IMG/VR virus record: IMGVR_UViG_3300045018_000072
Coordinates: 1 to 34,098 of that record
Reading direction: 5' to 3' (one strand)
Source of the DNA: a virus
Taxonomy: Duplodnaviria > Caudoviricetes
Length of the DNA stretch: 34,098 bases
A program made the translations under genes and the position numbers. The stretch's first letter is position 1. The number at the start of each line of letters is the position of its first letter. Of this stretch, positions 2,215-33,630 are shown piece after piece. The notes beneath the pieces were generated by a model that ran no database searches, was not told where the DNA came from, and worked only from the letters and a program-made list of their open reading frames with translations.

Positions 2215-3120
2215 TCACCACGGGAACATGAGCCCGTTGTACACGATCCTGTTGCCCGCCGTGTTCGCGGTCCCGTCCGCGACCGCGGCATCAGTGCGGT
2301 ATACCTCGCAAAGCCAGCCCACGACCTTGTTGATGCTCCGGTCCTGAATCAAGATCGGATAGCCCGCCGGCTCGCTTGCCGCCTTGGTCAGCATGTAGCC
2401 GTCCATGCTCAGGCCGTTGTCCATCACGGCGTTGTTGAACCCGAGCCAGGCGGCGTTGGGCACGCGGCCCTGCGGCACGGCCCCCCTGCCCCAGTGGCCC
2501 GCCACGTCATCCCACTTGGGGTAGCCGCAGAAGAAGACGGCCGGCTTGGTCACGAGCGACGGCTCGAAGTCATACATGGCCCCGGCATAGAAGCTCGTGT
2601 CCCATGAGCCACTGATGCTCTCGTCGCCGAGCAGCAGGAACGCACTGTTGTCCACGACGCCGTTGAGCGCATGCTCGACGACGGCCAGGTGGAAGACGGT
2701 TGCGGCGTTGTTGCCCGAGCCAGCGCCACGCGCGTACAGGAGCCCCGTGAAGAGCGCCGCGCCGAATGTCTTGGTCCCGGTGTCCCATCCGCCATCGGGC
2801 GCAAGGCCAGCGACAAGGCCGGTGTACGGTCCCGCGTAGCCGCCGATGGCCAGGGCCGCGTTCGTCGCGCCGAACATGATCTGATGCTTGACCCCGCCCC
2901 AGGCATAGGCGCTCTCGACAACGAGGAAGGCGCCAGAAGTCGGCCCTGTCTCCGAGGTCCAGTTGCCGGCCGCGCCCGGATACGCCTCCACAACGCTGTA
3001 GTGTCCGGGGAAGTTCGACGGGAGCCAGTTCGTGAAGAAGTAGTAAATGTGCCAGAGGATGCGCGTCGCGTTCGTCCCGGCCGTCACGAGATTGCGCCGT
3101 ACCTTCCACGATGCCGCCAT
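2215..3120 (-). CDS. Putative virion structural protein (Gly/Trp-rich; tail or baseplate associated)
   Basis: 301 aa with strong SD (AGGAGG). Composition is beta-rich and Gly/Ala/aromatic. Lies within the baseplate operon. No family recognised. Confidence 0.6.
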   Translation of the reverse strand: MAASWKVRRNLVTAGTNATRILWHIYYFFTNWLPSNFPGHYSVVEAYPGAAGNWTSETGPTSGAFLVVESAYAWGGVKHQIMFGATNAALAIGGYAGPYTGLVAGLAPDGGWDTGTKTFGAALFTGLLYARGAGSGNNAATVFHLAVVEHALNGVVDNSAFLLLGDESISGSWDTSFYAGAMYDFEPSLVTKPAVFFCGYPKWDDVAGHWGRGAVPQGRVPNAAWLGFNNAVMDNGLSMDGYMLTKAASEPAGYPILIQDRSINKVVGWLCEVYRTDAAVADGTANTAGNRIVYNGLMFPW

Positions 3121-3129
3121 GTCTGCCTC

Positions 3130-3219
3130 CTACTCCCGCGTGACCGAGCACGCCGGGACCTTGATGCCGCAGCCGTCCTCGTAGACGAACGGCCATACAT
3201 ACGTCAGCCAGAAACTCAT
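3130..3219 (-). CDS. Small 29-aa ORF MSFWLTYVWPFVYEDGCGIKVPACSVTRE
   Basis: AGGAGG SD just upstream of the ATG at 3219. Fills the gap between two genes, and its TAG abuts the next SD. Below the size cut-off of the ORF track. Confidence 0.5.
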   Translation of the reverse strand: MSFWLTYVWPFVYEDGCGIKVPACSVTRE

Positions 3220-3228
3220 CGAGCCCTC

Positions 3229-3543
3229 CTACGGCAGCGGACCAGCCGCGTGCCAGTTGAGCGTCCCGCTCGATCCGGCCACACCCTCCAGGTGTAGCAC
3301 GATGCTCTTGTGATCCGCCGCAGGCGTGACGCTACGGATCAGCGGCTGCGAGCCTACGGCGGTCACGAAGGCCACGGTCAGGTCATACGTGTCATCGAGG
3401 AACGCGAGCGGGAATGTGATCGTCACGTCGAACACAGCCGGCGCGCCCACGAGCGGCCCCCAGGCAACGGGCGCCGTGTAGCCGCCGCCGTGAAACCAGG
3501 CGTGGCCGCCGTATCGCACTTCCATCGTCGTGAACGTGGGCAC
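3229..3543 (-). CDS. Small beta-sandwich virion protein (resembles tail-fibre-tip domains)
   Basis: GTG start with SD AGGAGG; 104 aa. The pattern VTITFPLAF...Y...V...LNWHAAG resembles C-terminal domains of phage tail fibres. Confidence 0.5.
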   Translation of the reverse strand: MPTFTTMEVRYGGHAWFHGGGYTAPVAWGPLVGAPAVFDVTITFPLAFLDDTYDLTVAFVTAVGSQPLIRSVTPAADHKSIVLHLEGVAGSSGTLNWHAAGPLP

Positions 3544-3552
3544 GTGTCCCTC

Positions 3553-4137
3553 CTATGCCGGGGCCGAGTAGGCGCGCGCGCTCTTGCCCCGCTCGCCCAT
3601 GAGCCTCCCGATGCAGTCCGCCAGGTCAAGCGCCAGCGACGGCGACGGCAGCGCCGTGCCGCCGTCCACGGGATGCGAGTGATTGATCAAGGCCACATAG
3701 GCCAGGTGAATCACGGTCATGAGCGGGTAGAACAAGGCCAACTCAAGGGCGCCGCCAGCGACCTCGACTCGGCCCGCGTCGAGATGGATCGCCATGCCAG
3801 ACGGCGCCATGAACCATGCGTCGTCGCCACTCACGGGCAACGCGTGGGCCTGATTGTGCAGCCCGGCGATGGCGTAGCCACCCGCGTTCGGGTCGCCGCT
3901 CGGGAACACGCACAGCACCTCCGCGTCCTTGGGGGCGGGCAGGTACAATGCGGCGCCAGAGCCCATGGCGAATCCAACCTGCTTGACACGACAGCGCCAG
4001 CCCTCGGGCTTTGCGCGCACGTCGAGCCAGCGGCCCTGGGCATTGGTCACAACGGCCTCGACGATTCCCGTGATGGCCCAGATCCGCGGGTCAATGCCGG
4101 GGCGGGAGAAGAAGTCGGCCGCGCGCTGTGCGTTCAT
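3553..4137 (-). CDS. Baseplate central spike (gpV/gp5-like OB-fold protein)
   Basis: ATG at 4137 overlaps the hub stop. Contains YLPAPKDAEVLCVFPSGDPNAG (gpV OB-fold pattern) and an HxH motif (NHSHP) near the C-terminus. Confidence 0.8.
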   Translation of the reverse strand: MNAQRAADFFSRPGIDPRIWAITGIVEAVVTNAQGRWLDVRAKPEGWRCRVKQVGFAMGSGAALYLPAPKDAEVLCVFPSGDPNAGGYAIAGLHNQAHALPVSGDDAWFMAPSGMAIHLDAGRVEVAGGALELALFYPLMTVIHLAYVALINHSHPVDGGTALPSPSLALDLADCIGRLMGERGKSARAYSAPA

Positions 4138-5828
4138 GCGAGCCCTCCCGCGAGGTCTATGTCCAAGGTCCCCGCCTTGAGTTCCTTCTCGATCCGCGCG
4201 ACCTGATAGTTGATTGCCGTGCCGTGGCAAGAGTAGCCGTCATCGGCAGACCATCCGTGCTCGATCGTCTGGACGTACCATTGCCGCACTGCGTTGTCAT
4301 CTTGGCCGCTGATCTCGGCGGCCACGTCTGCGGCGGTCTTCTTGTCGTGGCCGAGCTTCACGAGCCAGGCCGTAAGCTGCTTCTCGCCATACGCAGCGAT
4401 GCGCGGACTCGTGCCGATGGCTCCTTGGCCCGTCTCCTGGCCCGTGCCTTCCTCCGCGTCATAGATCTCCACGGGCGAGCCAGGCTTCAACTCCAGCAGA
4501 TCCGGATCGTAGTTGTCTCCGCCATAGGAAGCGAGGCTACTGGTCGTCCACTCCGTATTCATGTCGGCACGACCCGTTTCCTCGAAGACCTGTCTGGCGA
4601 TCTCCTTCAGGTCGGCCTCACTTGTGAATCCGGTCACGACCTGCTGGCGGACTTCCTCGCTGGCCCATAGGCCCTTGGCGTCCACCTTGGTCGCGCGGGC
4701 CTTCTCCGGCCAGCGGGCCTTGATGATCTTGTTGCCGTCCGCGCAGACGACTTCGATGGTCGGCGCCTTGACGCGGCCCAGGGTCTTGCGTTCATCGAGA
4801 CTCGCTAGGTTGCTGCCGTAGACCAGGGCTGGATTCTCCAGAGCTTCGTCCGTGATCGGGTGCCTGCGCTCCCGCGCGGAGAACGGAACGATCTCCATAA
4901 CGGCACCCGTTCGCGCGTCGGCGACCTTGCGCGCGGCGCTCGCGGAGAAGATGGAGGTGGGGCGCGCGAGGACAAACCGCCCGAGCGGTCGCGGGCCGCC
5001 GCTCGGGTCCTCGCCCTGCCACACATCGGCATAGCAGACAAGGCCCAGGCCGACGCTCAGATCGGTCATGAGATCCCAATACTTCTCGTTGGCGATCTTC
5101 GGCGCGCGGAAGGGCTTTGCGCCACCTCCGGCCGTCTGTGCCTTCCCATTGGCAAGGAAGATCTCGCCCGGCTTGAATCCGTCCAGGTGGAGCGGCAGGC
5201 CCTTGGTCGGCGGCAGGCCGTCCAGGAGCGAGAGAAAGATCTGCTCCACTGGCAGGCTCCAGTCGGTGTCGCGGTATACGTCCGGGTGGACCTCGTTGTC
5301 GATCAGGTCGCTCGTGAAGTCCCGGAACGCCGCGGACAGCACCTCGCCGCCCGATGAGCGAGACAGCCCGATCTCATGCGTAGAACCGACGAACCGCAGC
5401 ATGGCCGGCGAGATCATGTCCACCGCGCCGATGCCAGCCGGACCCCATGCGGATTTCAGCACAGTAGGGCTGATGCCCTTGCGCACTGCCTCCTGCCACG
5501 TCGCCGGGCCGATGGTCCCCATGTATGCCGCCACGGAGAGCGAGCGGATGAACTTTGGCTTGATGGGCAACTCCTGGGCGCGGAAGCTCAGATTGCACTC
5601 GTCCGCCTGACGGTAGGAGTTGCGGCGTATGGACATCGTGCTCGGCACTATGGGTATGCGGATCGAGAGCCCGTCGTCGGCGACGGCTTCGTTTGGATCT
5701 CCTGGCAGATTGTATTTCGCGATCTTCCCGCCTTTGAGCGTTGCGATGGCCTGCGCGGATAGCGGCCGCTTGAACTCATCGAGGCGAACGTACAGCATCG
5801 CGAGCGCGACCGGGTAGTACACGCCCAT
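4134..5828 (-). CDS. Baseplate hub protein (gpD/gp27-like)
   Basis: 564 aa between the LysM gene and the spike gene. Has N-terminal SIRRNSYRQADECNL and C-terminal WYVQTIEHGWSADDGY, patterns typical of hub/late-control-D proteins. Confidence 0.72.
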   Translation of the reverse strand: MGVYYPVALAMLYVRLDEFKRPLSAQAIATLKGGKIAKYNLPGDPNEAVADDGLSIRIPIVPSTMSIRRNSYRQADECNLSFRAQELPIKPKFIRSLSVAAYMGTIGPATWQEAVRKGISPTVLKSAWGPAGIGAVDMISPAMLRFVGSTHEIGLSRSSGGEVLSAAFRDFTSDLIDNEVHPDVYRDTDWSLPVEQIFLSLLDGLPPTKGLPLHLDGFKPGEIFLANGKAQTAGGGAKPFRAPKIANEKYWDLMTDLSVGLGLVCYADVWQGEDPSGGPRPLGRFVLARPTSIFSASAARKVADARTGAVMEIVPFSARERRHPITDEALENPALVYGSNLASLDERKTLGRVKAPTIEVVCADGNKIIKARWPEKARATKVDAKGLWASEEVRQQVVTGFTSEADLKEIARQVFEETGRADMNTEWTTSSLASYGGDNYDPDLLELKPGSPVEIYDAEEGTGQETGQGAIGTSPRIAAYGEKQLTAWLVKLGHDKKTAADVAAEISGQDDNAVRQWYVQTIEHGWSADDGYSCHGTAINYQVARIEKELKAGTLDIDLAGGLA

Positions 5829-7090
5829 CAGGCCACCGCCGGGATCACGAGGAACATGCCCACGCTCAAGTCGTCACCCGCCAGGTCGTTGCACTCGGCC
5901 ACGTCCTGCCAGTGGTCCTGCGTGCCGTAGTAGAGGATCGAGACCTTGCGCAGCGTGTCGCCATCCTTGACCATGTAGACATCGAGATAGTCGGAGACGA
6001 TGTACTGTGCTGCCGCGTCGGAGACCTGTTGCGCCGTAGCCAGGAGCTTGTGCTGGCCCTGGGTCAAGCTCTTCTGCTGCACGGCGAGCTTGGCCTGTGT
6101 GGCCGCGCTGCTCTGCTCTCCGGCTGGCTTGCCCTGCGTCGAGGTCCAGGGCAGGAAGTCGATGCTGTCGCCCGTTGCGGCCCACTCATCGGCGACGGCC
6201 GCGTACTGTGCTCGGAGGGCAAGCGCAGACGCCTGTATGTCCCAAACATCCTGCTTCACCTGCTGCGCGGTCAGCAGGATCGACTTGGCCGTCTGCGCGG
6301 GCAGGGCGGCAATGATCGCAACCTCATCGAGCAGATCGTCCACCTGCTGCACCATGGCCGCAAGCTTGGCAACGGGCTGTGTGATGTAGTCCTTGTACGC
6401 TCCCTTGGTCTCATCGAGTACTTCCTTGGCCGCATCGAGCATGTCCTGGAGTGAGTCAAGCAGGCTCTTCGCCTTGGGCTTCGGTGCCGGGAACTTCTCC
6501 TGGGGCTTCAACTCCGAGTCCGCGATCCACTCGAAGTGGATCTCCCACTCGATGCGCTGCGGCCTGTGCTCGGGGAATCGCACGGCCTCGATGAGCCCGC
6601 GCTGCACTGTCTCGAAGTTCTCGCGGCCCCACTTGACCACGACTTCCTGGCCTGAGCGGCACATATCCAGGAGGATCTTGCGGCCGTGCTCGGGCGTGAG
6701 TATGTGCTGTGTCTTGCTGCCCGGCTCCTCGTAATCGAACCCGCCTCCGCCACTCGGCCCGTCCGGATTCATGTATCGCGCGAGCAAGATTCCCTTGACG
6801 GTCAGATCTGTGTGGTGCGGACCGAAGACCTGGGCCACGGCCTCGGTGCTGCCGGGGTAGTATTCGATCTTCATGCGCTGCCGCGCGGTCAGGTCCACGG
6901 GCCGGAACGGCAAACAGCGGGCGGTCAGGCGCACGAGCCGTCGCCGGCCAGTCGTTTCCTGGATCGAGAACGCGGTGGGCGCCGACAGGACGTTGTCCGC
7001 CGCCATGGCCCTGGCAATGTCGTCAATGCTCTTGGATTTCCCAAAGATCGGCAGTTCGCTCGGGAGCCCTATGGCGGAGAGCATCCCCAT
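5828..7090 (-). CDS. Tail tube initiator/baseplate protein with C-terminal LysM domain
   Basis: The C-terminal YMVKDGDTLRKVSILYYGTQDHWQDVAECNDL...LVIP is a LysM motif. A coiled-coil middle follows a beta-rich N-terminus. Follows the tape measure gene. Confidence 0.8.
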   Translation of the reverse strand: MGMLSAIGLPSELPIFGKSKSIDDIARAMAADNVLSAPTAFSIQETTGRRRLVRLTARCLPFRPVDLTARQRMKIEYYPGSTEAVAQVFGPHHTDLTVKGILLARYMNPDGPSGGGGFDYEEPGSKTQHILTPEHGRKILLDMCRSGQEVVVKWGRENFETVQRGLIEAVRFPEHRPQRIEWEIHFEWIADSELKPQEKFPAPKPKAKSLLDSLQDMLDAAKEVLDETKGAYKDYITQPVAKLAAMVQQVDDLLDEVAIIAALPAQTAKSILLTAQQVKQDVWDIQASALALRAQYAAVADEWAATGDSIDFLPWTSTQGKPAGEQSSAATQAKLAVQQKSLTQGQHKLLATAQQVSDAAAQYIVSDYLDVYMVKDGDTLRKVSILYYGTQDHWQDVAECNDLAGDDLSVGMFLVIPAVA

Positions 7091-20809: not shown

Positions 20810-20838
20810 AGGATGCGCGCGGCGCCACCCGTTGTCAA
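20810..20838 (-). promoter_or_regulatory. Putative sigma70-type promoter for the head genes
   Basis: TTGACA (20833-20838) - 17 nt - CATCCT (20810-20815), in the intergenic gap. Confidence 0.55.
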
Positions 20839-21881
20839 GGACGCGAGTACCCAAGATGGGGGAGCACAACCCCTGGCCTTTCCAGAACGCGGCGTTGCCG
20901 GGGACGCTGGAACGCGAGCATCTTGCGGCCGTCGTGCGTGCCCCACTCAAGCGCCGCACGGCCCGGCAGGCAAGAGCACAGGAACGGCCCGGCGTCCGCG
21001 AGCTTGACCTGGCCGCCGTCACACCACGCATCGGCGGGCGCGGGTACGTCCAGCACAATCACGTCAGCCTGTTCGTCGAGCCGCCCGAGCACGTCGCGGA
21101 TGTCGGCGGCCCGAGTACGCAGCCAGTGATGCAGGAGCGAGAGCACCAGCACGGCATTCCATCGCCCGGACACATTGGCCCGCAGCCACTCTGCCGCATC
21201 AGCACAGTGCCAGCGGAAGCCAGCAGAGAGGCCGAAGGCCACGGCAAACCGCGCCGCGATGCGCAGCACATGGAGATCCTGGTCAACACAGTCGACGGCG
21301 GAGAAGCCCAGACGCACAAGTTCTCTGCTGAACCGGCCCGTGCACGCGCCGAGATCCAGGGCCGATCCGCAAGACACGCCGAGCCTCTCCAGCCCGTCCC
21401 GCATCGCTCGCACCCGCAGAGAGGAGCGGCGCTGCTGCCAGGCGCCGAACCAGGGGTGCTCGACTTCCTCGTAGAGGGATGCGCCCCCGTAGATCGCCCA
21501 GAGGTCCCGCTCCATGGCGGCCCACATGGGCGAAACCTCGCGGATGTCCACCTGGAGCCATTCACAGCCCTCCGCAATGGCGCGGCTTGCCCTGTGGTGG
21601 CCATCCAGGAGCTCGAATCGGCCGTCGCCGGTGATGCGACAGGGGAGCGCATCCAGGGAGAACGGACCGTTCATGAGCCCGGAGCGGTAGGCGACTACCT
21701 GGGACACGGCCGCGGGATCGCATCCCCATCTATTGGGCAGGCCCTTCGCGTACCAACTGCCCTGCGTGGGCCGACCCGCGAGCACGGCGTCCACAAAGGT
21801 CCGGTGCGGAGTCAAGGCAACGGGCGCACCCGTGTTGAACTCGTAGACCATTGATGCCTGGACGCACAGGATCGTGCCCAT
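20835..21881 (-). CDS. ParB/Srx-like domain fused to a class I SAM-dependent methyltransferase
   Basis: N-terminal FELLDGHHRASRA (ParB-like DGxHR); C-terminal ALDLGACTGRFS, CVDQD and VLVLSLLHHW. Confidence 0.75.
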   Translation of the reverse strand: MGTILCVQASMVYEFNTGAPVALTPHRTFVDAVLAGRPTQGSWYAKGLPNRWGCDPAAVSQVVAYRSGLMNGPFSLDALPCRITGDGRFELLDGHHRASRAIAEGCEWLQVDIREVSPMWAAMERDLWAIYGGASLYEEVEHPWFGAWQQRRSSLRVRAMRDGLERLGVSCGSALDLGACTGRFSRELVRLGFSAVDCVDQDLHVLRIAARFAVAFGLSAGFRWHCADAAEWLRANVSGRWNAVLVLSLLHHWLRTRAADIRDVLGRLDEQADVIVLDVPAPADAWCDGGQVKLADAGPFLCSCLPGRAALEWGTHDGRKMLAFQRPRQRRVLERPGVVLPHLGYSRP

Positions 21882-21885
21882 GGTC

Positions 21886-22527
21886 CTACTTCCACACGAC
21901 GATCACGGGCTGCATCGCGTCGGCATTATGCCGCGTCACCGCTCGGGCATGGAGCACGGCAAGGGCGAAGTGCTGCCATTCCGTGCCCGAGGTTGGAACC
22001 CACGGCCACGGAACTGACCAATCGCCCACCTCGGCCTTCTGCGAGAGCAAGGAGACATAGTAACTATGATAGAAATTGCAGTGATCAAAAACGATGACGC
22101 CGCCTGGCCGCAGTCGCGCGAAGAGGCCCGTCAGGACGCGGAAGCCCTGGACGTTCGACAGGTGATAGAAGACGGCCATGGAGTAGATGATGTCGAACGT
22201 CATGTCGGCGGGCAAGTCCTGGGGCCAGTCCACGCGCAGACACCGCGCAGTCGGGACGTTTGCGGCACAGCGAGCGAGGATGTCCGCCGAGGCGTCGGCG
22301 CAGACGAGCGACTTGCAACGAGGCGCCACGGCCTTGGCGATACGGCCGTCGCCGCAGCCGTAGTCGAGCAGGTCCTTGCCGTGCGGCGGGCCGGCGAGGC
22401 CGCAGACCATATCCGCCGAAGCCACGCCCGAGAGCCAATACTGTTCGTCCGTGGCGTTCGCCCCGCCGTCAATGGCCTTGCGTCCGTGCTCCGCGTGGAG
22501 CCGATTCCATGTCGCGCCGAAGTCCAT
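21886..22527 (-). CDS. Class I SAM-dependent methyltransferase
   Basis: ATG at 22527 is coupled to the upstream TGA. Motifs LLDYGCGDGR, CADAS, FDIIYSMAVFYH and LRPGG. Confidence 0.88.
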   Translation of the reverse strand: MDFGATWNRLHAEHGRKAIDGGANATDEQYWLSGVASADMVCGLAGPPHGKDLLDYGCGDGRIAKAVAPRCKSLVCADASADILARCAANVPTARCLRVDWPQDLPADMTFDIIYSMAVFYHLSNVQGFRVLTGLFARLRPGGVIVFDHCNFYHSYYVSLLSQKAEVGDWSVPWPWVPTSGTEWQHFALAVLHARAVTRHNADAMQPVIVVWK

Positions 22528-23195
22528 CAGGCACCTCTCTTCAGGGCCGCGACGGCCTTGCCAACGAAGCGTCGCGCCCAGTCCTGATCGTAGTGCGCCC
22601 AGGAGCACGTCGGCGAGAGCGGCGGTGCGTCCCAGGGAACAGCGAACACCGGCCATCCGAGCGGCGCAAGCGTATGCACCATCTCGGCTTGGTGCTCCAT
22701 GAGCCTGGCCCGATACTCGCTCTCGCCGTGCACGCGGTATCGCCCCGAATGGTAGAGCACGATGCCGCCACGACCTCCGCTTACTTGCAGTGCGTGGTGG
22801 ACCGCGAGCCAGTCCGCGCGGACATCCTCGACGGAACGCTGCGGCAGGCCCGGATATCGAGCGCGGAAGCCCTTCCAGTCCGGCGTCTCCCATGGCGCGC
22901 CCTCCGGCCGGATGGGGACGCCGTCCACGTCGTAGTAGTGATACATCGCGTCCGCAAACGGAGACCAAAGGACGGCGCCTATGTGCTCCGATTCCGCGGG
23001 CAGATCGCCGAAGTACGAGAAACCGAACGAGCGCAGCGCATCACAGGCGGCCGCGTATCGCTCTGCGCAGTCCCGGTCGCCTGATACGAGCGCGCGCACC
23101 ACGTCAGAGCGGAGATATTGCGTCGCCACACACGGATGCGTCGCGGCCCACGGCAGGCCCACACAGCCAACGGAGAGGAGCGGGCGGTCCGTCAC
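22527..23195 (-). CDS. Hypothetical protein in the glycosyltransferase cassette
   Basis: 222 aa, coupled to both neighbours (GTGA and TGATG overlaps). No motif recognised with confidence. Confidence 0.6.
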   Translation of the reverse strand: MTDRPLLSVGCVGLPWAATHPCVATQYLRSDVVRALVSGDRDCAERYAAACDALRSFGFSYFGDLPAESEHIGAVLWSPFADAMYHYYDVDGVPIRPEGAPWETPDWKGFRARYPGLPQRSVEDVRADWLAVHHALQVSGGRGGIVLYHSGRYRVHGESEYRARLMEHQAEMVHTLAPLGWPVFAVPWDAPPLSPTCSWAHYDQDWARRFVGKAVAALKRGA

Positions 23196-24121
23196 TCCAG
23201 CCCCCTCATGATCGTACCGATCAGCCCGCCTACATGGACGGCTGACCAGCCGCGCGCGAGTTCGCGGGCCACTTCTGCTCGCTTGTCCAGGGCCTCGCGC
23301 GGTTCCTCCGCAAGAGCCCGGAGCCTACAGGCCAGGTCATCCGCCTGGCGCGTCTCGGCAATGTAGGCGCCGTCCTCTCCGCCATGGCCCATGAAGGGCC
23401 GCGCTGGTGATGCCCCGCATGACAGGATCGGGCAGCCCAGGGCCGCCGCGTCCACGACCGCCGCGGAAAAGCCCTCGTGCAATGAGAGCGACGCGAACAC
23501 GTCCAGCGAGTCGTACCACGCTGGCATGTCCTCGGGCCGCAGGAGTATGTCAAGACCCGCGACTTCGAGCGTGACGGCCACGCCCATATCGCGCGCCGTC
23601 GTGATGGCCTCGCGCATCACGCCCACGCCCTTGTGATCCAGCGCGTTATGAGACCAGCCGTTGCTGATCATGCCGACGCGCAGGCCCTCATGGGGCGTCA
23701 CGACCCGCTCCCGCTTCGGGTGCACAGGGTCGGACGGGAACGGATGGAACACGGCATCGGGCCGCACGACCAGAAATCGAATCGACTGCGTGAGCAACCC
23801 GTCCGCCAGGGCCAGGGCAAAGGCGAATGGCTCGCGGTTGTGCCAGGAGTAGTCATCCACTACGTCCGCGAGATACTTGCAGCCGGGCCGCGCGAGCCCG
23901 CGCTGATGCAGCTCGGCCAGAAACCACCAGGACGTGCAGTAGACCACGTCCGCGTGCGGCATGCCCGCATAGTTGGGCTGGTGGCCTTCTCGCAGCGCCG
24001 CAAGCGATGGGATCAAGTAGTGCGTGCTCGCCTCGATGCCGCGCCCCAGGTGCGGAATCACCCGGCGCGCGAACGAATCCAGCGCCCATCCTGGCACGTC
24101 AACGACGAAGACAGCCTTCAT
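23192..24121 (-). CDS. Glycosyltransferase, GT-B fold (GT4-like)
   Basis: HKG, then MPAWYDSLDVFASLSLHEGFSAAVVDAAALGCPIL, the GT4 EX7E-type region (here E-x7-D). Confidence 0.85.
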   Translation of the reverse strand: MKAVFVVDVPGWALDSFARRVIPHLGRGIEASTHYLIPSLAALREGHQPNYAGMPHADVVYCTSWWFLAELHQRGLARPGCKYLADVVDDYSWHNREPFAFALALADGLLTQSIRFLVVRPDAVFHPFPSDPVHPKRERVVTPHEGLRVGMISNGWSHNALDHKGVGVMREAITTARDMGVAVTLEVAGLDILLRPEDMPAWYDSLDVFASLSLHEGFSAAVVDAAALGCPILSCGASPARPFMGHGGEDGAYIAETRQADDLACRLRALAEEPREALDKRAEVARELARGWSAVHVGGLIGTIMRGLE

Positions 24122-25236
24122 GTTCCTCCTGTCAACGCCTCGATCATGCGCGGCAGATCCTCTCGTTGCCAGCGGTCAACGTCCGCGAGGTCGCGGACGC
24201 GACGCACGGCCGCCTGGCGACAGCGCTCGCGGATCGCCGGTGCTCGCGTCGCGATTGAGTTGAGCGCGCCAGCCGCCACGGTCGCCAGATCGCCAAGGTC
24301 TGGCAGGACGAAACTTCCCGTCTCTGGCGTCGCCACATTCCGCACGTCGCCCACGTGCGTCGAAACCACAGGCACGCCGGCGGCGAGAGACTCCCAGACC
24401 ATGCAAGGCGAGCCCTCCGCGAACGAGAGCAGCAAGGTCGCGTCGCAGGCCGAATAGAACGGGCGCATGTCCGCGGTCGGCGGAAGCTCATGTACGCGAT
24501 CCGCGATGCCCAGATTGCGGGCGAGGGTGCGCATCGAGTCTCGACAGTCGGACCAGTAGCGGACGAACTCGGGCGCCTGGCGCTCGTCTACGAGCCCGGC
24601 CAGGGCCAGGTGAGCGTCGAGCCCGAGACGCCGCAAGATCTCGACCGCCGCTACGAGCGTGACCACGCGCTTGCCCCAACAGGCCCGACCTGCATACCCT
24701 ACGATGAAGCCGCGAGCGGGCAGGCCCAGGGCAACGCGCGCCGCCGCCTGACTGAGGGCCGCGAACTCCGCCGCGTCGAAGCGGTTGCGGACGCAGACGA
24801 CGCACTGGCTCGGCACGCCTGCGGCGATGGCCTCGGAGACCTCGTGCTCGGCGATGACCACGACGCGATCCCAGAGAGGCAGCAGATCTGGAGTGAGGAA
24901 CCGCCGCGACCAGGTGCCGAGCGAGTGCAGGACGCAGGACATGTGCCGCACGAGCGGCCGAGCGCGCGGCAGAAGCGGGATAAGCGGCTCCGCGATGTCG
25001 CAGACAAACGCATCTTCAGGCTCCAGGTGGCACGCAAGCCACGCGGTCGTCAGTCCGCGCGCGTCAATGACCCGCACGGACGGCCGCAGCATGCGCTCGA
25101 AGATGCCGCCCGGATGGCAGACCAGGACCGCGATCCGCACGCCCGCATCGGCCAGCGCGTTGATCCACCCCATGGCCGCGCGGTCAGCACCGCCGAGCCC
25201 AAGTGAGAGACAGGCAAACCAGAGGCGGCCGGTCAT
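24118..25236 (-). CDS. Glycosyltransferase family 4
   Basis: ATG at 25236 is coupled to the upstream stop. Motifs LGGADR, GYAGR...KR and SFAEGSPCMVWESLAAGVPVVSTHVGD. Confidence 0.9.
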   Translation of the reverse strand: MTGRLWFACLSLGLGGADRAAMGWINALADAGVRIAVLVCHPGGIFERMLRPSVRVIDARGLTTAWLACHLEPEDAFVCDIAEPLIPLLPRARPLVRHMSCVLHSLGTWSRRFLTPDLLPLWDRVVVIAEHEVSEAIAAGVPSQCVVCVRNRFDAAEFAALSQAAARVALGLPARGFIVGYAGRACWGKRVVTLVAAVEILRRLGLDAHLALAGLVDERQAPEFVRYWSDCRDSMRTLARNLGIADRVHELPPTADMRPFYSACDATLLLSFAEGSPCMVWESLAAGVPVVSTHVGDVRNVATPETGSFVLPDLGDLATVAAGALNSIATRAPAIRERCRQAAVRRVRDLADVDRWQREDLPRMIEALTGGT

Positions 25237-25436
25237 ACTTCGTTCTTGCCCCTTGGTCTCGGCCGCTCCGTTGCTCCCCACCTTGCCCTTGCTGCCTTGT
25301 GCGCTCGCTCGCTCCGCTGCTTCGGCGTGGCCTTGCGCGCGGCGGCCAAGCCGCCCATGCGGGCGAGGTCAGTGACAGTAAGGGGCGGACCGCCTTGAAT
25401 CTCTAATGGCAAGACATGATGGGTGCGGCCCGCCAT
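25233..25436 (-). CDS. Small basic protein with a GG.A.A....(E/Q)RSE.A.KAA.ARW motif (putative nucleic-acid binding)
   Basis: 67 aa; LARMGGLAAARKATPKQRSERAHKAARARW. The stop overlaps the GT4 start. Confidence 0.6.
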   Translation of the reverse strand: MAGRTHHVLPLEIQGGPPLTVTDLARMGGLAAARKATPKQRSERAHKAARARWGATERPRPRGKNEV

Positions 25437-25480: not shown

Positions 25481-27022
25481 TCACCACCGCCCCATGAGCT
25501 GGCTTGCACCGATGGGGATCACGGCCCCGAAGTTCTCGTCGGCGTGAGCCCGCGCGATGAGAAGGGCGGCAAGGCGGTCGCCCATATGCTTGTCCGGCGC
25601 ATAGTAGAGGATGTCCTGGATGAGCTTCGCGACCTCTCCGCTCGCGGGTTGCCCGTTGATGCTTGGGATCTCCCAGAGGCCCTGTTCAAGCTCGACGGCG
25701 AACTTCTCGAACTCGAACTGCAACGACGCCTGGCCCGAGCCAGTCGTGTGCGGCCGGACCAGAGCTGTCGTGAGCCAGCGCGCGGTCTGCAAAAGCAAAT
25801 CCTGCGTCGCGTTGTTCTCGACCCAGAAGATCGGGCTGTAGCGGGCGTTGTGGTCCGCGATCCGCTGCACCATTTCCGGCGCGGTCCACTTGCCTCCCTC
25901 GACGCAGAGCAGACGCCGGGTACGATTGCGCCGTACCAGGAGCGACACCATCGCCGCGTCGTCCGCCGCGGCGCGACGCGACGCGGCCAGGTCCATGCCC
26001 ACGAGGATGAGCCCGTCGCCGTCGCCCTCGCGCTTGAGGTCCACCGCGGACAGCGCAACCCCGCCGCGACCGTCCGAAGTCCGCGTCCCCTTGTGCAGCG
26101 CAGCATCGATCCACGCGCGCTTGACCCGCGATGTTGCTTCGTCGTGCGGCTCGTTCAGGAGTTGCCGCGCGAACTCCCAACTGCCGATCTCCTGCCGCTT
26201 GGCCTCCAGGCGGGCGAGCGGCCACTGCTCGGGCCAGAGCGGCGTGCCGTCCGCGACGATGGCTCTGTCCACAATGGCGGGCCAGCCCTCGCGCATGAAC
26301 GTGTGCGGCACGTCGTCGGGATGCCAGGACGTGCCGATCAGAACGGCGCGTGCGTCGGCCGTGAGTCGCCCCAGGAGCGTGGCCTTGATCCAGCCCACGG
26401 CGTCCGCGCGTCCGGCCGGTGTGCGCGTGTTCTCGTAGTCACACACGTCGTCCATCACGAGCCAGTCGAGCCGGGTCCCGAGCACGGAGCCGTGGACGCC
26501 GAACGCCTGGATGCTGTAGTCCTTGATGCCCACGGCGCGGCCGGCCAGATTGATTGCACTGCCTGTCCACGGCTCGCCGGGCCGGAGAGACGGGAACACG
26601 CGCCGGAGCTTCTCGTTGCGCGCCACGTGGTCCCGGATTGCTCCGAGCACCTTGGCCGCCTGGGAGTACGTGTTGCAGCACAGGCCGGCCCGCAGGTTCG
26701 GGTTTCGGCCGAGTTCCCAGAGCGTCCGGGCAATGGCGAGCTGCTCCGTCTTCGCGTGCTCGATGGGCGCCAGGATCACTGACCGCGGATGCGCGGAGAC
26801 GAGCGCTTGCCAGCGCCGATGACAGTCCGCGTTGCGCCACGGTCGCTTCTTCTGATCGGCGAAGCAGAACTGCGTGAGTGCGTCCAGGTCGTCGCGGGAC
26901 TCCTCGGTTGCCTCGTCCTCGCACGCAGCCAGCACGGCCTCGTGCTCCGCGAGGAAGTCGGACTCGCCACACCACTGCGTCTTCTCTTGCGGGGAGCCCC
27001 TGAGACGATGCCGGCGGGCCAT
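25481..27022 (-). CDS. terL: Terminase large subunit
   Basis: 513 aa. Walker A-like APIEHAKTE, Walker B LVMDD, coupling motif IGTSW, LWPEQWP, and nuclease acidic motifs VGMDLA, WVENN and HMGDRL. Confidence 0.92.
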   Translation of the reverse strand: MARRHRLRGSPQEKTQWCGESDFLAEHEAVLAACEDEATEESRDDLDALTQFCFADQKKRPWRNADCHRRWQALVSAHPRSVILAPIEHAKTEQLAIARTLWELGRNPNLRAGLCCNTYSQAAKVLGAIRDHVARNEKLRRVFPSLRPGEPWTGSAINLAGRAVGIKDYSIQAFGVHGSVLGTRLDWLVMDDVCDYENTRTPAGRADAVGWIKATLLGRLTADARAVLIGTSWHPDDVPHTFMREGWPAIVDRAIVADGTPLWPEQWPLARLEAKRQEIGSWEFARQLLNEPHDEATSRVKRAWIDAALHKGTRTSDGRGGVALSAVDLKREGDGDGLILVGMDLAASRRAAADDAAMVSLLVRRNRTRRLLCVEGGKWTAPEMVQRIADHNARYSPIFWVENNATQDLLLQTARWLTTALVRPHTTGSGQASLQFEFEKFAVELEQGLWEIPSINGQPASGEVAKLIQDILYYAPDKHMGDRLAALLIARAHADENFGAVIPIGASQLMGRW

Positions 27023-27056: not shown

Positions 27057-27185
27057 TCAGGTCCCGGAACTGCGCGCGCCCGCCGCCGCCCTCGCGCCTC
27101 CGCCCTTGCCGCCCTTGCCGCCCTTGCCGCCCTTGCCGCCCTTGCCGCCCTTGCCGCCCTTGCCGCTTGCTGTCTTCTTGGCCAT
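27057..27185 (-). CDS. 42-aa Gly/Lys-repeat peptide MAKKTAS(GKG)7GGARAAAGARSSGT
   Basis: SD AGGAG lies 7 nt upstream of the ATG at 27185. The ORF starts 4 nt after the previous stop and ends 34 nt before terL. Absent from the ORF track because of its size. Confidence 0.75.
   Translation of the reverse strand: MAKKTASGKGGKGGKGGKGGKGGKGGKGGGARAAAGARSSGT
27102..27164. repeat. Perfect tandem repeat, 7 x 9 bp (GCCCTTGCC; GGCAAGGGC on the minus strand)
   Basis: Read directly from the sequence. The unit is codon-length and encodes Gly-Lys-Gly. Confidence 0.97.
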
Positions 27186-27189
27186 CGCA

Positions 27190-27663
27190 CTACTCCTGCC
27201 GCCTCAATGGCAGCGCAAGATCATTCGACGCCGCATCGGGCTTGCTTGTCAAGAATCGAATGCTCGCCTCCGGAAGGGCAATCCCTTCCTGTCTCGCCAC
27301 GGTCAGGCCGTCGAGGTACTTGTCCCCACACCAGCCTTTCGCGCACAAGAACGCCTCTTTCTGCTCGCGCGACTGAAAGCACAAGCAGCACCAATACTCG
27401 GAATCCGTTGCCGCCACGAATCGCCGGATGTCCTGCGCTCGGCGTTCGGCGAATGCCCGCTGCACGGCATTCAGCTCCGCCTTGCAATCGGCCTCCGTGT
27501 TGTTGGTCCGGACCACTCCCGCGAGAGGATCTGGTCGCGCGGGCGCCAGAACCACCGCTCCATCGTCGGAGCCAAAGTCGGTCTGTGCCAATGCCGCGAG
27601 CGCCGCATCGTTGCCGAGACGACGCAATGCCTCGATGTCAGGGTCAGCGTCGGGAGCACTCAT
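27190..27663 (-). CDS. Hypothetical protein, partner of the PP-loop enzyme (157 aa)
   Basis: ATG at 27663 with SD GGAGGT overlaps the end of the upstream gene. Contains the motif-like block TDSEYWCCLCFQSREQKEAFL...GDKYLDG. Confidence 0.7.
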   Translation of the reverse strand: MSAPDADPDIEALRRLGNDAALAALAQTDFGSDDGAVVLAPARPDPLAGVVRTNNTEADCKAELNAVQRAFAERRAQDIRRFVAATDSEYWCCLCFQSREQKEAFLCAKGWCGDKYLDGLTVARQEGIALPEASIRFLTSKPDAASNDLALPLRRQE

Positions 27664-28351
27664 AGCGAAACACCTCCAGGTCTGCCATCGGGAACCACTC
27701 CAGGATGCGAGCATAATCTCGTGGATACCACTGCTTGATGCCGTAGAGGAAACGAAAGTCGAGCCCGTCGAAGCTCCGGCCGAAGATGCGGTACTCGGCC
27801 GGAAGCCTCGTTCCGCAGCGGTGAATCAGGTCCACTACCGCCGCCTTGTTCATGTCCCACACCGGGAAGTACGTGTGCTTCTTTCGCCGAATCGGGCCGT
27901 ACTTCGTGAACGCCATGCGGCGCTGTATATTGTCGCAGGCCCGAGTCCCGACCGCGTTCCACGGGGAGACAGACAGGCCCACGTCTTCCGCCACGTCGTC
28001 CCGCACGTCGTCATCCGAGAACCGCGCCAAGCGGCACGCCGCGATGATCGGGCCGCGCTCCGGCGGCTGAAACACTCGGTTGCGGAGCATCCGATACAGG
28101 GATGGGTGCGGAACGCGGATAATGTGACAACGAAAGAACTGCTCATAGTAGTGCAGTCCCTCTTCGACGAACTCCAGGTCGGGCACCAGGTACTTGTAGA
28201 ACGGGATCACCTCGTCGAAGACGGGGCGAAGCACCAACCACGCCGCGAGCGAGTCCTTGCCGCAGGAGAAGGCCAGCAGGGTCCGCGGTGTTTCCGTTCG
28301 CACCTGTCGCGCGACTTCTAGGCCAGTCGGCCATTGCGGCGCGAGGTTCAT
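27644..28351 (-). CDS. PP-loop (adenine nucleotide alpha hydrolase) protein, PAPS-reductase-like
   Basis: LLAFSCGKDSLAAW (PP-loop SxGKDS), AVGTRACDNIQRR (GxRxxD/E..R) and FPVWDM (P..DW-like). Confidence 0.85.
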   Translation of the reverse strand: MNLAPQWPTGLEVARQVRTETPRTLLAFSCGKDSLAAWLVLRPVFDEVIPFYKYLVPDLEFVEEGLHYYEQFFRCHIIRVPHPSLYRMLRNRVFQPPERGPIIAACRLARFSDDDVRDDVAEDVGLSVSPWNAVGTRACDNIQRRMAFTKYGPIRRKKHTYFPVWDMNKAAVVDLIHRCGTRLPAEYRIFGRSFDGLDFRFLYGIKQWYPRDYARILEWFPMADLEVFRYECSRR

Positions 28352-28923
28352 GCTGTCTTCTCCGTCGCCTCGGGCGCGCCCCCCACGATGAGCCGCAGCC
28401 GCTCCTTGGCCCGCTCCCGCACGTGGGGAGGCAAGGAGTCGAGCCGCTCCTGGAGCGCAAGCCAGCGCCGTTCGCGTGCCTCCGGAGTGTCCGCCTGCAA
28501 GGCCACTCGCTGGTCTGGCTCGCCGTGGAGGAACGCATACAGCCGCATGAGCTTGTCGATCATGGGCACGAGGTCAGACGGCTCAATATCCCTCGGGTCA
28601 AGCGGCTCCACCTTCCAGACGCCGCCCTCCTTCACGCCCGAGACGCGCTGTATAATCTTGCTGACCAGTGCATCGATCAGCAGCAGAGCGCGGTCCTTGG
28701 CCTTGAGTAGCCGGTCTTCCGTCGCGCGCTGGCCTGCTGCGGTGAATCGCCGCAGTCGCACTATGAGCGGCTCGATGCCGCGAGAAGGGTCGCCATGGAG
28801 AATGTACTTGCGGACCGTGTTCTCGTTGACCTTGCATGCTCGGCGGACATGTTCCATGGTGGGGTGTTCGCAGTAGGCCGCGAACATTTCCTCTATCCGG
28901 GCGGGTGTCAGCTTCTCAGCCAT
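28348..28923 (-). CDS. Putative terminase small subunit
   Basis: 191 aa with an N-terminal HTH-like segment (MEHVRRACKVNENTVRKY), a helical middle and LHGEPD. First gene of the packaging operon. Positional inference. Confidence 0.6.
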   Translation of the reverse strand: MAEKLTPARIEEMFAAYCEHPTMEHVRRACKVNENTVRKYILHGDPSRGIEPLIVRLRRFTAAGQRATEDRLLKAKDRALLLIDALVSKIIQRVSGVKEGGVWKVEPLDPRDIEPSDLVPMIDKLMRLYAFLHGEPDQRVALQADTPEARERRWLALQERLDSLPPHVRERAKERLRLIVGGAPEATEKTA

Positions 28924-29412: not shown

Positions 29413-29442
29413 AGGATACGAGCGCACGGGATCGGCTGTCAA
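29413..29442 (-). promoter_or_regulatory. Putative sigma70-type promoter for the packaging/late operon
   Basis: TTGACA (29437-29442) - 18 nt - TATCCT (29413-29418). Confidence 0.6.
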
Positions 29443-29481: not shown

Positions 29482-30714
29482 TCATGCGGCCGGCTCCAGA
29501 TCATCGAACGCCGCCCCGTCCTCGCGCGTCGCCTTCCTGCCTGTGAGCCGCTGCCAGCGACGGATGATCACGTCGCAGTAGTGCGGGTCAAGTTCGACAA
29601 GGCGCGCAATGCGACCCAGTTGCTCCGCCGCGATGAGGGTCGTTCCCGAGCCCGCGAACACGTCAAGAATCGTCTGGCCGCGCGTCGAAAGCCTCTTGAT
29701 CATCCATCCCCACAGAGCTACCGGCTTTGGGCATGGGTGGTCTATGTCGGCGGCATTGGCGGGCACATTGAGATTCAGCGCATCGGGCCAAGATCCTCGC
29801 CCGGCGCGCGACCTCGGATCTTTACCATAGGCCAGGAATGGGGTCCAGCAGTTGAAACCCCATGGTGACGGAAACGGACCTGCACCATAGAACCAACAAA
29901 GCACCCAATCGGGACACGGATATAACCATTGCTCTCTTATCCCACACGAGAAAACAACGGCATGTGCCGCCTCGCGTGCGAGCGGCAGCCACCTTGCCGC
30001 GAGCGCACGTGCGGCCTCCTCTGAATCGTCAAATGATCTATATCCCAGGCCCACGCCGTACGGCGGATCCGTCAGGCAAACATCAGCGGTTTCCCCACTC
30101 ATGGATTTTGCAACAGCGGCCGGATCGGTGCAGTCCGCGCACAAAAGCCGGTGCCGCCCGAGCATCCACAGGTCGCCCGGTCGCGAAACCGTGGCCTCCT
30201 GCGCAGCCGGAGCCTCGTCCTCGGCCGTCGGGCCATCCGGCTCCGACGCCTCGGACGTTGTCGCCGCCTGCGCCAGTTCGTCCATGAGCACGTCGAGCCG
30301 CAGCGGCCCGAGGTCTACTTCCTGTGACGCAAGCTCCTCAAGTTGCCTGAGCGCGTCTTCCGTAAACTCGCCGCCGATGCTCGGGTTGTTCGCTGCGATG
30401 TTCGCCTGCCGCTCCGTCTGTTCATCCCAGTCCACCACGCGCACGGAGAAGCGCTCACCCGTGGCAGGGTGTTCTATCCAGCGCCGCTCGCCGTCCACGA
30501 TCCATTCGGTCGCCCCGGCCGCGCGTAGTTGCGCAATGCGCTGGTGTCCCGTGACCAGGTGCCCGGTGCGCCTGTTCCATGTGATGCCCGCGATGTCACC
30601 AAAGCGGCGCAGGCTCTCCCCGAGTCCGGCCGCGGCTTCGGCGGTGATCCGCCGCGGGTTGCGCGGGTCGGGAGCGAGGTCGGCGATGTCCCGCGAAGTC
30701 TGTTCCCTTCTCAC
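29482..30714 (-). CDS. ParB-like N-terminal domain fused to an N6-adenine/N4-cytosine DNA methyltransferase (beta class)
   Basis: GTG at 30714 is coupled to the upstream stop. Motifs PDPRNPR, LVTGHQR, GDLWMLGRHRLLCAD, TDPPY, HPCPKP, LDVFAGSGTT and ELDPHYCDVIIRRW. Confidence 0.92.
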   Translation of the reverse strand: MRREQTSRDIADLAPDPRNPRRITAEAAAGLGESLRRFGDIAGITWNRRTGHLVTGHQRIAQLRAAGATEWIVDGERRWIEHPATGERFSVRVVDWDEQTERQANIAANNPSIGGEFTEDALRQLEELASQEVDLGPLRLDVLMDELAQAATTSEASEPDGPTAEDEAPAAQEATVSRPGDLWMLGRHRLLCADCTDPAAVAKSMSGETADVCLTDPPYGVGLGYRSFDDSEEAARALAARWLPLAREAAHAVVFSCGIREQWLYPCPDWVLCWFYGAGPFPSPWGFNCWTPFLAYGKDPRSRAGRGSWPDALNLNVPANAADIDHPCPKPVALWGWMIKRLSTRGQTILDVFAGSGTTLIAAEQLGRIARLVELDPHYCDVIIRRWQRLTGRKATREDGAAFDDLEPAA

Positions 30715-30962
30715 TTCTCGCTCCCTGGCTTTGATCTGCGAACCGACAAGCAACTGGCCACAAGCGCGTTGGCCCTCGCTACGGCCAGGGCCTTGGCGGC
30801 CTCGGCCAGCTTGCCGGACAACTCCGCAATCATGTCAGTGTCTTTGTCCTCGATGAAGACTGCGCGCATGATGGCCCCAGCCATCCGGCGCACCCTCTCC
30901 CCGGCCTCGTATACTGGATCTCGCGGCGTTGTCGCTTTTGCCGCCGCTGCCCCGCGAGCCAT
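30711..30962 (-). CDS. Hypothetical protein (83 aa)
   Basis: SD GGGAG; helical and Ala-rich. The stop overlaps the MTase start. Confidence 0.6.
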   Translation of the reverse strand: MARGAAAAKATTPRDPVYEAGERVRRMAGAIMRAVFIEDKDTDMIAELSGKLAEAAKALAVARANALVASCLSVRRSKPGSEK

Positions 30963-32725: not shown

Positions 32726-33630
32726 GCCGTCAGCCCTTCCCGTTCCGCAATGCTCTGGACCCACCGTCCGACAACTTCCGCGACCTGCGGCACGACCGCG
32801 TTGCCAAGACAACGGAGGCGAGCACGGCGGGCACGAGCGTCCAGCCATCCGGGAACCCCATCAGGGCCTCCACGAACGAAGGAGAAAGCACGCGGCCGGG
32901 TGGGCGCACAGTTGGGATGCCGCTGGAGATAGTCGCGCCATCCGTCTGCGTCGTCGGGCCCGGGAGGCCAGTCATGGCATACGCTGGTCGCTTGCCGCCG
33001 TTCCCTGCGTATCGTGCCTGCGCCATGTCCTCTGGCGTCTCCATCCCTGCGGTCGGCGACGGCCATGTCCTCGCCTGCCTGTCCAGCCCCGCCTCCCCCT
33101 TCCGCTCGCCACCCCGGCTGCGAAACGAATCCGCGCCCGGCGTCTGCCAGCCATCCGACGACGAAGATCCGGTGCCGTCTGTGCGGTGCTCCAACGTCGC
33201 ACGCTCCGATACGACACCACTCCGCATCGTACCCGAGGTCGGCCAGCGAACGGAGCACGTCTCCGAAGGCGGTGCCCCGGTTTGCCCGGAGCAGGCCGGG
33301 TACGTTCTCCACGACGACAAGGCGCGGTCGTAGCACGCACAGAACCCGCTCAAACTCCGGCCACAGCCACCGATGATCGGCTTGCGCTCGGGCCTTGCCC
33401 GCACACGAGACGGGCGGGCAGGGGAAGCCGCCGCAGATGAGGTCGGGTCGGACAGCAGAAGCGTCAACTGCTCTGACATCGGGATACCTCGTCATGCCGG
33501 GCCAATGCCGCTCCAGGACTTCGCGGCAGTACGGGTCACATTCGCACTGCCAGATCGTCGGCCCGAGGCCAGCGCGCTCAAGGCCAAGCTCCAGGCCGCC
33601 GATCCCACTGAACAGTGAGCCGATGGTCAC
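32722..33630 (-). CDS. DNA (cytosine-5) methyltransferase, main (alpha) polypeptide
   Basis: GTG at 33630 is coupled to the upstream stop. Motifs I LFSGIGG, IV GFPCPPVS, VI VENVPGL, VIII HRRHRIFVVG and X LGNAVVPQVA. Confidence 0.93.
   Translation of the reverse strand: MTIGSLFSGIGGLELGLERAGLGPTIWQCECDPYCREVLERHWPGMTRYPDVRAVDASAVRPDLICGGFPCPPVSCAGKARAQADHRWLWPEFERVLCVLRPRLVVVENVPGLLRANRGTAFGDVLRSLADLGYDAEWCRIGACDVGAPHRRHRIFVVGWLADAGRGFVSQPGWRAEGGGGAGQAGEDMAVADRRDGDARGHGAGTIRRERRQATSVCHDWPPGPDDADGWRDYLQRHPNCAPTRPRAFSFVRGGPDGVPGWLDARARRARLRCLGNAVVPQVAEVVGRWVQSIAEREGLTA
32730..33479 (-). CDS. Nested +1-frame polypeptide (putative beta subunit of the C5-MTase, carrying motif IX)
   Basis: A 249-aa ORF entirely inside the MTase gene, with SD GAGGT 6 nt before its ATG. 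RVLSPSFVEALMGFPDGWT resembles C5-MTase motif IX. Confidence 0.72.
   Translation of the reverse strand: MSEQLTLLLSDPTSSAAASPARPSRVRARPERKPIIGGCGRSLSGFCACYDRALSSWRTYPACSGQTGAPPSETCSVRWPTSGTMRSGVVSERATLEHRTDGTGSSSSDGWQTPGADSFRSRGGERKGEAGLDRQARTWPSPTAGMETPEDMAQARYAGNGGKRPAYAMTGLPGPTTQTDGATISSGIPTVRPPGRVLSPSFVEALMGFPDGWTLVPAVLASVVLATRSCRRSRKLSDGGSRALRNGKG

Follow-up and report, generated by a model that had tools for sequence, protein, structure and literature searches.

A PP-loop enzyme, a partner protein and a tailed basic peptide form a conserved phage module beside unrelated terminases

Three genes packed beside terL

The window, by which is meant the whole 34,098-nucleotide stretch of DNA analysed here, is a piece of a tailed-phage genome. 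It carries terL and the genes for portal, capsid, sheath and baseplate on its minus strand, and the sequencing runs that contain it are lake-water metagenomes, with no RNA run among those listed; reads taken from four DNA runs were fragmentary. Packed between a 191-aa gene and terL lie three further minus-strand genes: a PP-loop enzyme of 235 aa (27644..28351; called from PHROG matches, a fold model and an alignment), a partner protein of 157 aa with SEYWCCLCFQSREQKEAFL (27190..27663; called from profile and alignment), and a tailed basic peptide of 42 aa, MAKKTAS-(GKG)7-GGARAAAGARSSGT (27057..27185; called from ORF reading and tail counts). The partner gene overlaps the enzyme gene by 20 nt, and the start of the enzyme gene is in turn overlapped by 4 nt by the gene upstream. 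Within the peptide gene, a perfect 9-bp tandem repeat of 7.4 copies (27100..27166, minus strand) encodes (GKG)7 and is lineage-specific rather than conserved in the family, and the codons of the R-S-S-G-T tail, together with the stop, occupy 27057..27074 (minus strand; defined from the sequence and its synonymous variation). A Shine-Dalgarno-like AGGAG (27193..27197, minus strand) is found 7 nt 5' of the peptide ATG, immediately 5' of the partner stop. An earlier note, made from the letters of this DNA, had described three packed genes at 27057-28351, the last with a good ribosome-binding site of its own; the coordinates, motifs and seven GKG units all proved exact, as did the site. It had further described the set as splitting terS from terL, which holds for terL (25481..27022, minus strand; phrog_38, E 5.8e-48); the upstream 191-aa gene (28348..28923, minus strand) is a putative terS by position only, family and relative searches with it having returned no match.

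The packaging region of the window is rich in modification genes. Two GT4 glycosyltransferases are encoded between terL and the portal gene, together with two SAM methyltransferases (20835-25281); an N6/N4 DNA methyltransferase fused to ParB lies upstream (29482-30753), and a further methyltransferase is found at 32730-33479, all on the minus strand. The packaging region has been described (PMC6536676) as the place where phages gather DNA-modifying genes. Directly after terL there is also a basic 67-aa ORF without a family match (25233-25436, minus strand), and the region's top sigma-70-like promoter match (10/12; 29413-29442, minus strand) precedes the putative terS by about 490 nt. Palindromic 6-mers are strongly avoided window-wide (CTCGAG, 4 against 46 expected; CGATCG, 6 against 43; GGATCC, 2 against 28), as expected under restriction pressure. 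A word purge linked to the module (GGA, GGG and other 3-4-mers) was found neither in the window nor in its 43-kb twin, both of them partial genomes.

A PP-loop enzyme without conserved cysteines

The enzyme carries SCGKDS at residues 29-34 and GTRACD at residues 135-140, matches PHROGs 2302 and 424 ('PAPS reductase') with E values of about 1e-12 to 1e-11, and has 614 homologues in one search. Across 103 aligned sequences the conserved elements are SxGKD, GxRxxDSxxR, PxxDW and YxxFGRSFDGxD, with the PP-loop residues S29, G31, K32 and D33 kept in 101-103 of the 103. Fold comparison of the model (pLDDT 96.5) gave FAD synthase as the closest structure (Z 13.8, rmsd 3.0 Å, 160 residues aligned), followed by APS/PAPS reductases (Z 12.4-12.6), the ATP sulfurylase CysD (12.4) and TilS (12.0); the matches to FAD synthase, CysH and CysD span 155-185 residues at rmsd 3.0-5.0 Å and 8-12% identity. 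Nearly all of the 37 chains at Z>=8 belong to the PP-loop/adenine nucleotide alpha hydrolase superfamily; a Foldseek search is led by TtuA, GMP synthase and TilS, with TtuA-TtuB at the top (E 3e-6). At the sequence level the enzyme profile has no hits among the sequences of solved structures, and NCBIfam PRK02090 is matched by 3 of the 103 members (best E 6e-4). The modelled fold thus places the enzyme in the PP-loop/adenine nucleotide alpha hydrolase superfamily, in the branch of PAPS reductase, FAD synthase and ATP sulfurylase. PP-loop enzymes activate their substrates by adenylation; FAD synthase, APS reductases and ATP sulfurylase adenylate phosphate or sulfate, not carboxylate.

None of the enzyme's cysteines is conserved. 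The only frequent one, C30 in the PP-loop, is present in 72 of the 103 sequences and replaced in 31, C232 is present in 8, and a conserved Cys pair is absent from the alignment. CysH requires a catalytic C-terminal cysteine and DndC, too, requires a catalytic cysteine (PMC8175902), so that neither function fits an enzyme that conserves none. An ordinary metabolic PAPS/APS reductase or FAD synthase with the peptide as a bystander is what the database labels and the best fold matches would suggest, and phage genes of this kind have been listed as metabolic and counted as sulfur metabolism (PMC10434257 and PMC11318856). The missing cysteine, the low identity to solved members and the fixed linkage to a partner and a tailed peptide make this explanation scarcely credible; the possibility, allowed for in the earlier note, of an ordinary PAPS reductase is unlikely on the first of these grounds.

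Locus L019 carries another PP-loop gene, a distant one (phrog_424, E 6e-50), directly upstream, and the Lys-rich start of the next downstream ORF replaces the free peptide there (3098-3790 and 5278-5886).

The partner protein and its likely link to ParB-like proteins

The partner consists of a variable N-terminus, a long helix and a conserved core, DSEYWxCxCFQSREQKEAFL...GDKYLDG. Its profile matches 165 of 169 loci fetched with the enzyme (of the four misses, two are ParB-type phages, one is a contig end and one another locus), and in the reciprocal direction the enzyme is found upstream in 36/36 evaluable clusters of a partner-first set. The family amounts to 1,648 clusters at 50% identity (E<=0.001) and is without a Pfam name. 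A full-length model of the partner (pTM 0.46) has no meaningful match among solved folds, and the 157-aa protein has no ParB match, the ParB/Srx N-terminal domain being absent. The protein tends to be acidic, with a negative net charge in 108 of 162 members and a median of -4.

Several observations connect the partner to the phage ParB-like proteins that accompany the enzyme in ParB-type loci such as that of Riemerella phage RAP44. The PHROG hit by three partner members also has a match in a ParB-like region, and an Atlas structure row points to a ParB-like cluster. In 26/26 ParB-type loci, among 484 ORFs, the top-ranked match to a profile of the partner core is the C-terminal segment of the ParB-like neighbour; 20 of these loci are close relatives of RAP44, so that about six independent sequences are represented. 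The E values range from 1e-4 to 0.49 against 2.8 for the next match, with a core cut by a pattern chosen after a single comparison with a ParB-like protein (E 0.019, weak); the unrefined partner profile missed LR1 and RAP44. Sequence comparison therefore makes it likely, short of proof because kin of RAP44 dominate and the core pattern was chosen post hoc, that the partner is homologous to the domain at the C-terminus of phage ParB-like proteins, the ParB domain itself being missing. Among longer partner fusions (355-2000 aa) none scored, which is weak evidence, ParB fusions falling below that range. Two partner-profile matches were observed in BigBern1 and Morgana (W02 37834-38436 and W04 86567-87238), and several two-stretch hits in the family search suggest a duplicated partner domain.

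A short basic peptide with a conserved C-terminal tail

Short ORFs rich in Arg, Lys, Gly and Ser, with strong Shine-Dalgarno sites, recur beside the enzyme-partner pair and are alike at the C-terminus. The strict tail, R[ST]SG[ST] followed by a stop, was found in 15 of 56 dereplicated lineages (60 enzyme clusters at 70% identity minus two without a partner match and two truncated) against 1 of 434 control flank windows, the pattern having been derived from these same enzyme-fetched loci. A relaxed form is present in 21/56 lineages against 1/434 control windows, and any basic short ORF in 46/56 against 60/434. Since the tail pattern came from enzyme-first loci, it was retested in a partner-first set of 80 metagenome loci, where the strict tail marks 16 of the 38 clusters that could be evaluated (41 in all), compared with 0 of 87 controls, under slightly looser filters and with several clusters recurring from the first set. 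When 60 peptide types were collected with no tail filter, Ser or Thr stood at position -1 in 45, Gly at -2 in 39, Ser at -3 in 39 and Arg at -5 in 41; an S[GSNA][ST] ending is seen in 35 of the 60 and other endings in 25, some types carrying the motif followed by 1-5 extra residues or ending in Arg, and the last tail residue varies (S, T, A, L, F or Y). The strict tail is written in 53 synonymous DNA encodings that use both Ser codon families and all three stops, which argues for selection at the protein level. On account of the same synonymous variation, the idea that the conserved element is a motif of DNA or RNA and no peptide is rejected.

The 84 distinct tailed peptides are 21-56 aa long and free of Cys; 64 of them are also free of Lys, and GKGGK occurs in one. 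The (GKG)7 repeat, which the earlier note had made much of, is hence no general feature, its likeness to the tail of histone H4 is incidental, and lysine modification, also suggested there, falls away as a general mechanism. What the same note had proposed as a set of enzyme, partner and peptide is borne out by the co-occurrence and by the tail with its controls: the scan of homologous loci that it called for did find short basic ORFs with a conserved C-terminus. Two or three peptide paralogues are present in 5 of 60 clusters, with a common tail and bodies otherwise mostly unlike one another, and in Lactobacillus phage JNU_P7 three basic proteins all end in GS[KR]GG. The peptide gene lies 1.3-3.7 kb upstream, with its tail retained, in four loci (L104, L093, L024 and L060). 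Neither a conserved N-terminal leader in the peptides nor a dedicated peptide promoter was found (for the latter, a match in 0 of 20 lineages, compared with 1 of 100 controls).

The earlier note was also right that ORF callers miss the peptide: its exact sequence is absent from a collection of called proteins that holds both of its larger neighbours, and 3/3 related peptides are missing as well (4/4 overall). Both peptides of Pasteurella phage Pm86 are unannotated, and those of Morgana and CA1NRNZ are annotated as hypothetical. In three loci (L165:3810-3917, L022:5147-5278 and L116:5087-5203) the peptide gene is antisense to enzyme and partner, and the antisense peptide gene of CA1NRNZ is co-oriented with terS. 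TerS-like proteins of Bifidobacterium phages (L164:2332-2697 and L068) end in RKTGT or RRTGT, like the peptide tail, which may be chance or may mark a second candidate substrate.

Two explanations that dispense with a covalent link to DNA draw on these features. The peptides might be protamine-like, internal virion or DNA-condensing peptides, whose tail would be a loading or maturation tag that is only modified (by AMPylation, cyclisation or peptide-to-peptide ligation) and never linked to DNA. Very basic, Cys-free bodies of 21-56 aa with several paralogues per locus, strong Shine-Dalgarno sites, a position heading the packaging genes and a partner that leans acidic, as a chaperone of basic cargo would, are all in keeping with this; it leaves unexplained, however, why relatives have a ParB domain fused to their partner, and the acidity of the partner is modest, and we consider it unlikely. 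The peptide might instead be a regulator, activating or inhibiting an enzyme whose true substrate would be a nucleotide or a factor of the host, with a role in counter-defence or superinfection exclusion. About 15 of 19 loci re-scanned by hand have no tailed peptide in the fetched DNA, five Snodgrassella loci included, so that in some loci enzyme and partner persist where a peptide was not detected, and Cys-less PP-loop proteins are accessories in type IV-B CRISPR systems (PMC8175902). Two or three paralogous peptides with one common tail suit substrates better, though, and the window proteins have no match in PADLOC; regulation seems to us distinctly improbable. The five Snodgrassella loci that keep enzyme and partner (L122, L137, L141, L142 and L144) are candidates for orphaned or host-adopted copies.

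One module beside many terminases

A terminase gene lies within the nearest three ORFs in 31 of 53 representative loci, and at least five TerL families are involved, as judged from a scan of 150 of 151 neighbouring ORFs (three per locus) against PHROGs in which ORF choice was often wrong-strand in GC-rich DNA. In most relatives the module precedes terS-terL instead of splitting them, and it also accompanies phrog_9 terminases. Named hosts of the loci include Actinomycetota, Pseudomonadota, Bacillota, Myxococcota and others, and the strict tail is scattered across many host phyla in a tree of the enzyme, a quick-mode tree of 82 hand-chosen and hand-labelled rows whose deep forks are unsettled and which carries no claim of co-evolution. 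Cultured carriers include the Gordonia phages Morgana and VanLee, Bifidobacterium BigBern1, Cutibacterium CA1NRNZ and Pasteurella Pm86; plasmids contribute one record. Enzyme, partner and tailed peptide are one conserved phage module that occurs beside unrelated terminases.

Two stretches of unusual composition were noticed in cultured carriers. In Morgana (67% GC) an unannotated stretch of 713 nt about 3 kb upstream of the enzyme (L167:317-1030, ~82150-82860) is nearly free of CG, and in CA1NRNZ an AT-rich, CCG-poor stretch (L179:10750-11600) lies close to the end of the record.

Predicted complex and proposed mechanism

The three chains were modelled together, as the earlier note had advised. 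The prediction with ATP scored 0.42 against 0.02 for the best control and 0.00 with the enzyme swapped, which favours a complex weakly, but the three runs disagree (0.42, 0.06 and 0.70), with contact agreement of at least 0% and partner pLDDT of at least 38, and the output named no interface. Of 157 solved complexes, 116 attain the mark for a complex, as do 2 of 215 mismatches; at <=0.60 it is attained by only 18 of the 157 solved complexes and by both mismatches. The predictions lend weak support to an enzyme-partner-peptide complex.

That the enzyme acts on the peptide tail, and that the tail is its handle, we regard as probable. A variable basic body, a fixed tag, several paralogues and an adenylating fold together point to the tail as the part that the enzyme handles. 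What follows from this contact is put forward more tentatively, as an ATP-driven ligation of the peptide, by its tail, to phage DNA or to a packaging protein, which we hold to be quite possible. The enzyme, with its partner, would recognise the C-terminal tail of the peptide and adenylate its free C-terminal carboxylate (ATP giving AMP and pyrophosphate), after which the AMP would be displaced by an amine, either of DNA (the slightly favoured option) or of a packaging protein. Activation of the carboxylate is preferred for three reasons: the small size and flexibility of the tails, the variation at the last residue, and the glycine end of ParB-type relatives; an acceptor on DNA or a packaging protein is suggested by the position of the module and the ParB fusion in relatives. 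The partner would serve as an adaptor for presenting the peptide; where it is fused to a ParB domain, as in ParB-type relatives, that domain would direct the complex to phage DNA. Conjugation would be timed late in infection, and the basic body would keep the peptide on the DNA and mask it from host nucleases or sensors. Taken to its conclusion, phages would covalently tag their own genomes at packaging with a ribosomal protamine-like peptide that shields the incoming DNA from nucleases or sensors, a DNA-directed peptide ligation with swappable bodies behind a five-residue tag; this fuller proposal is possible but rather doubtful.

Several observations weigh against ligation through the carboxylate. 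Motifs followed by 1-5 extra residues, or Arg ends, fit an internal Ser target better, the 25 peptide types that end outside S[GSNA][ST] are awkward for it, and the nearest folds adenylate phosphate or sulfate, although TilS (Z 12.0) is nearly tied. Ligation of any kind must also contend with the peptide-less loci and the uneven complex runs, and DNA bearing many peptides of 3-5 kDa would be hard to package through the portal. The chemistry might instead run in reverse, with the enzyme adenylating DNA, at a backbone or end phosphate as in DndC-type enzymes or at a base as in TilS and GMP synthase, and the Ser/Thr hydroxyl of the tail or a peptide amine displacing AMP to leave peptide-capped or sparsely tagged DNA. 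The transfer of AMP to phosphate or sulfate by the nearest folds would suit this direction, as would the last-place Ser or Thr in 45 of 60 peptide types, the Ser at -3 in 39 and the tolerance of variants with the motif plus an extension. DndC, of the same family, modifies DNA (PMC8175902). On the other side, ParB-type relatives are glycine-terminal and some tails end in A, L or F. The module accompanies phrog_9 terminases, which presumably make cohesive ends as a rule, and a covalent cap would block these. The reverse direction is not a likely account, and carboxylate ligation is preferred.

The conserved tail is a candidate substrate, which puts the enzyme within direct reach of a test that takes three small genes and a synthetic peptide. 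If peptide-linked DNA is indeed the product, it would represent a DNA modification of a new class, and the system would offer a compact tag-and-ligate tool.

Comparison with known systems

Phages with a 'PAPS reductase family' protein paired with a 'ParB-like nuclease' (Riemerella RAP44, Lactobacillus LR1 and JNU_P7, Bacteroides BS-TP2) resemble the module in their enzyme (22-32% identity), in its position before the terminase, in a short basic gene nearby and in a C-terminal domain that matches the partner core; they differ in the partner, which here has no ParB domain, and in the tail, which here is R[ST]SG[ST]. The region is the one called the ParB-Tls locus (Iyer et al. 2013, cited in PMC6536676), for which a part in directing DNA modification during packaging has been proposed. 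The pair carries no assigned function, and the accessible text mentions no peptide. CysH, FAD synthase and CysD share the fold and the PP-loop (Z 12.4-13.8), whereas the enzyme has no conserved catalytic or Fe-S cysteine and does have a fixed partner and peptide. DndC and SspD are members of the PAPS-reductase family that act on DNA, and one enzyme homologue faintly matches SspD (E 0.0055), yet their conserved sulfur-transfer cysteine is absent from the enzyme family (for DndC and SspD, PMC8175902). Nor were dnd or ssp genes found among the 150 neighbouring ORFs compared with PHROGs or among the window ORFs.

Systems in which a PP-loop enzyme engages the terminus of a small protein include TtuA-TtuB and Cap9-CdnD/QatC-QatB (Z 9.6 for Cap9-CdnD). 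Of these, TtuB is a sulfur carrier, folded and ubiquitin-like, TtuA depends on an Fe-S cluster, and Cap9 is QueC-like and modifies an N-terminus; the peptides described here, in contrast to these small proteins, are short, of low complexity and conserved at the C-terminus. Ubiquitin-like proteins, ThiS and TtuB have a beta-grasp fold and a Gly-Gly end, where the present peptides have 21-56 aa and mostly Ser or Thr ends. RiPPs and Pup or ubiquitin-like tags share with the module a short encoded substrate, a conserved terminal motif, an ATP-dependent enzyme and paralogous precursors, but here it is the C-terminal tail that is conserved and phage packaging that forms the context; a protease, transporter, E1/ThiF or PafA-type ligase was not seen among the neighbours scanned (three ORFs per locus and the window).

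A published account of the module was not found in the full-text literature, a coverage that takes in few subscription papers. The 'PAPS reductase' label is likely to be wrong for a large family (the partner alone forming the 1,648 clusters counted above), because the cysteines needed for that activity are missing from this branch, which is bound up with a partner and an often unannotated peptide. The superfamily is known, and the tailed-peptide system, with its putative function, fits none of the described kinds compared. This analysis adds the ParB-less branch, the R[ST]SG[ST] tag with its controls and the likely link, drawn from sequence comparison, between the partner and the C-terminal domain of ParB-like proteins.
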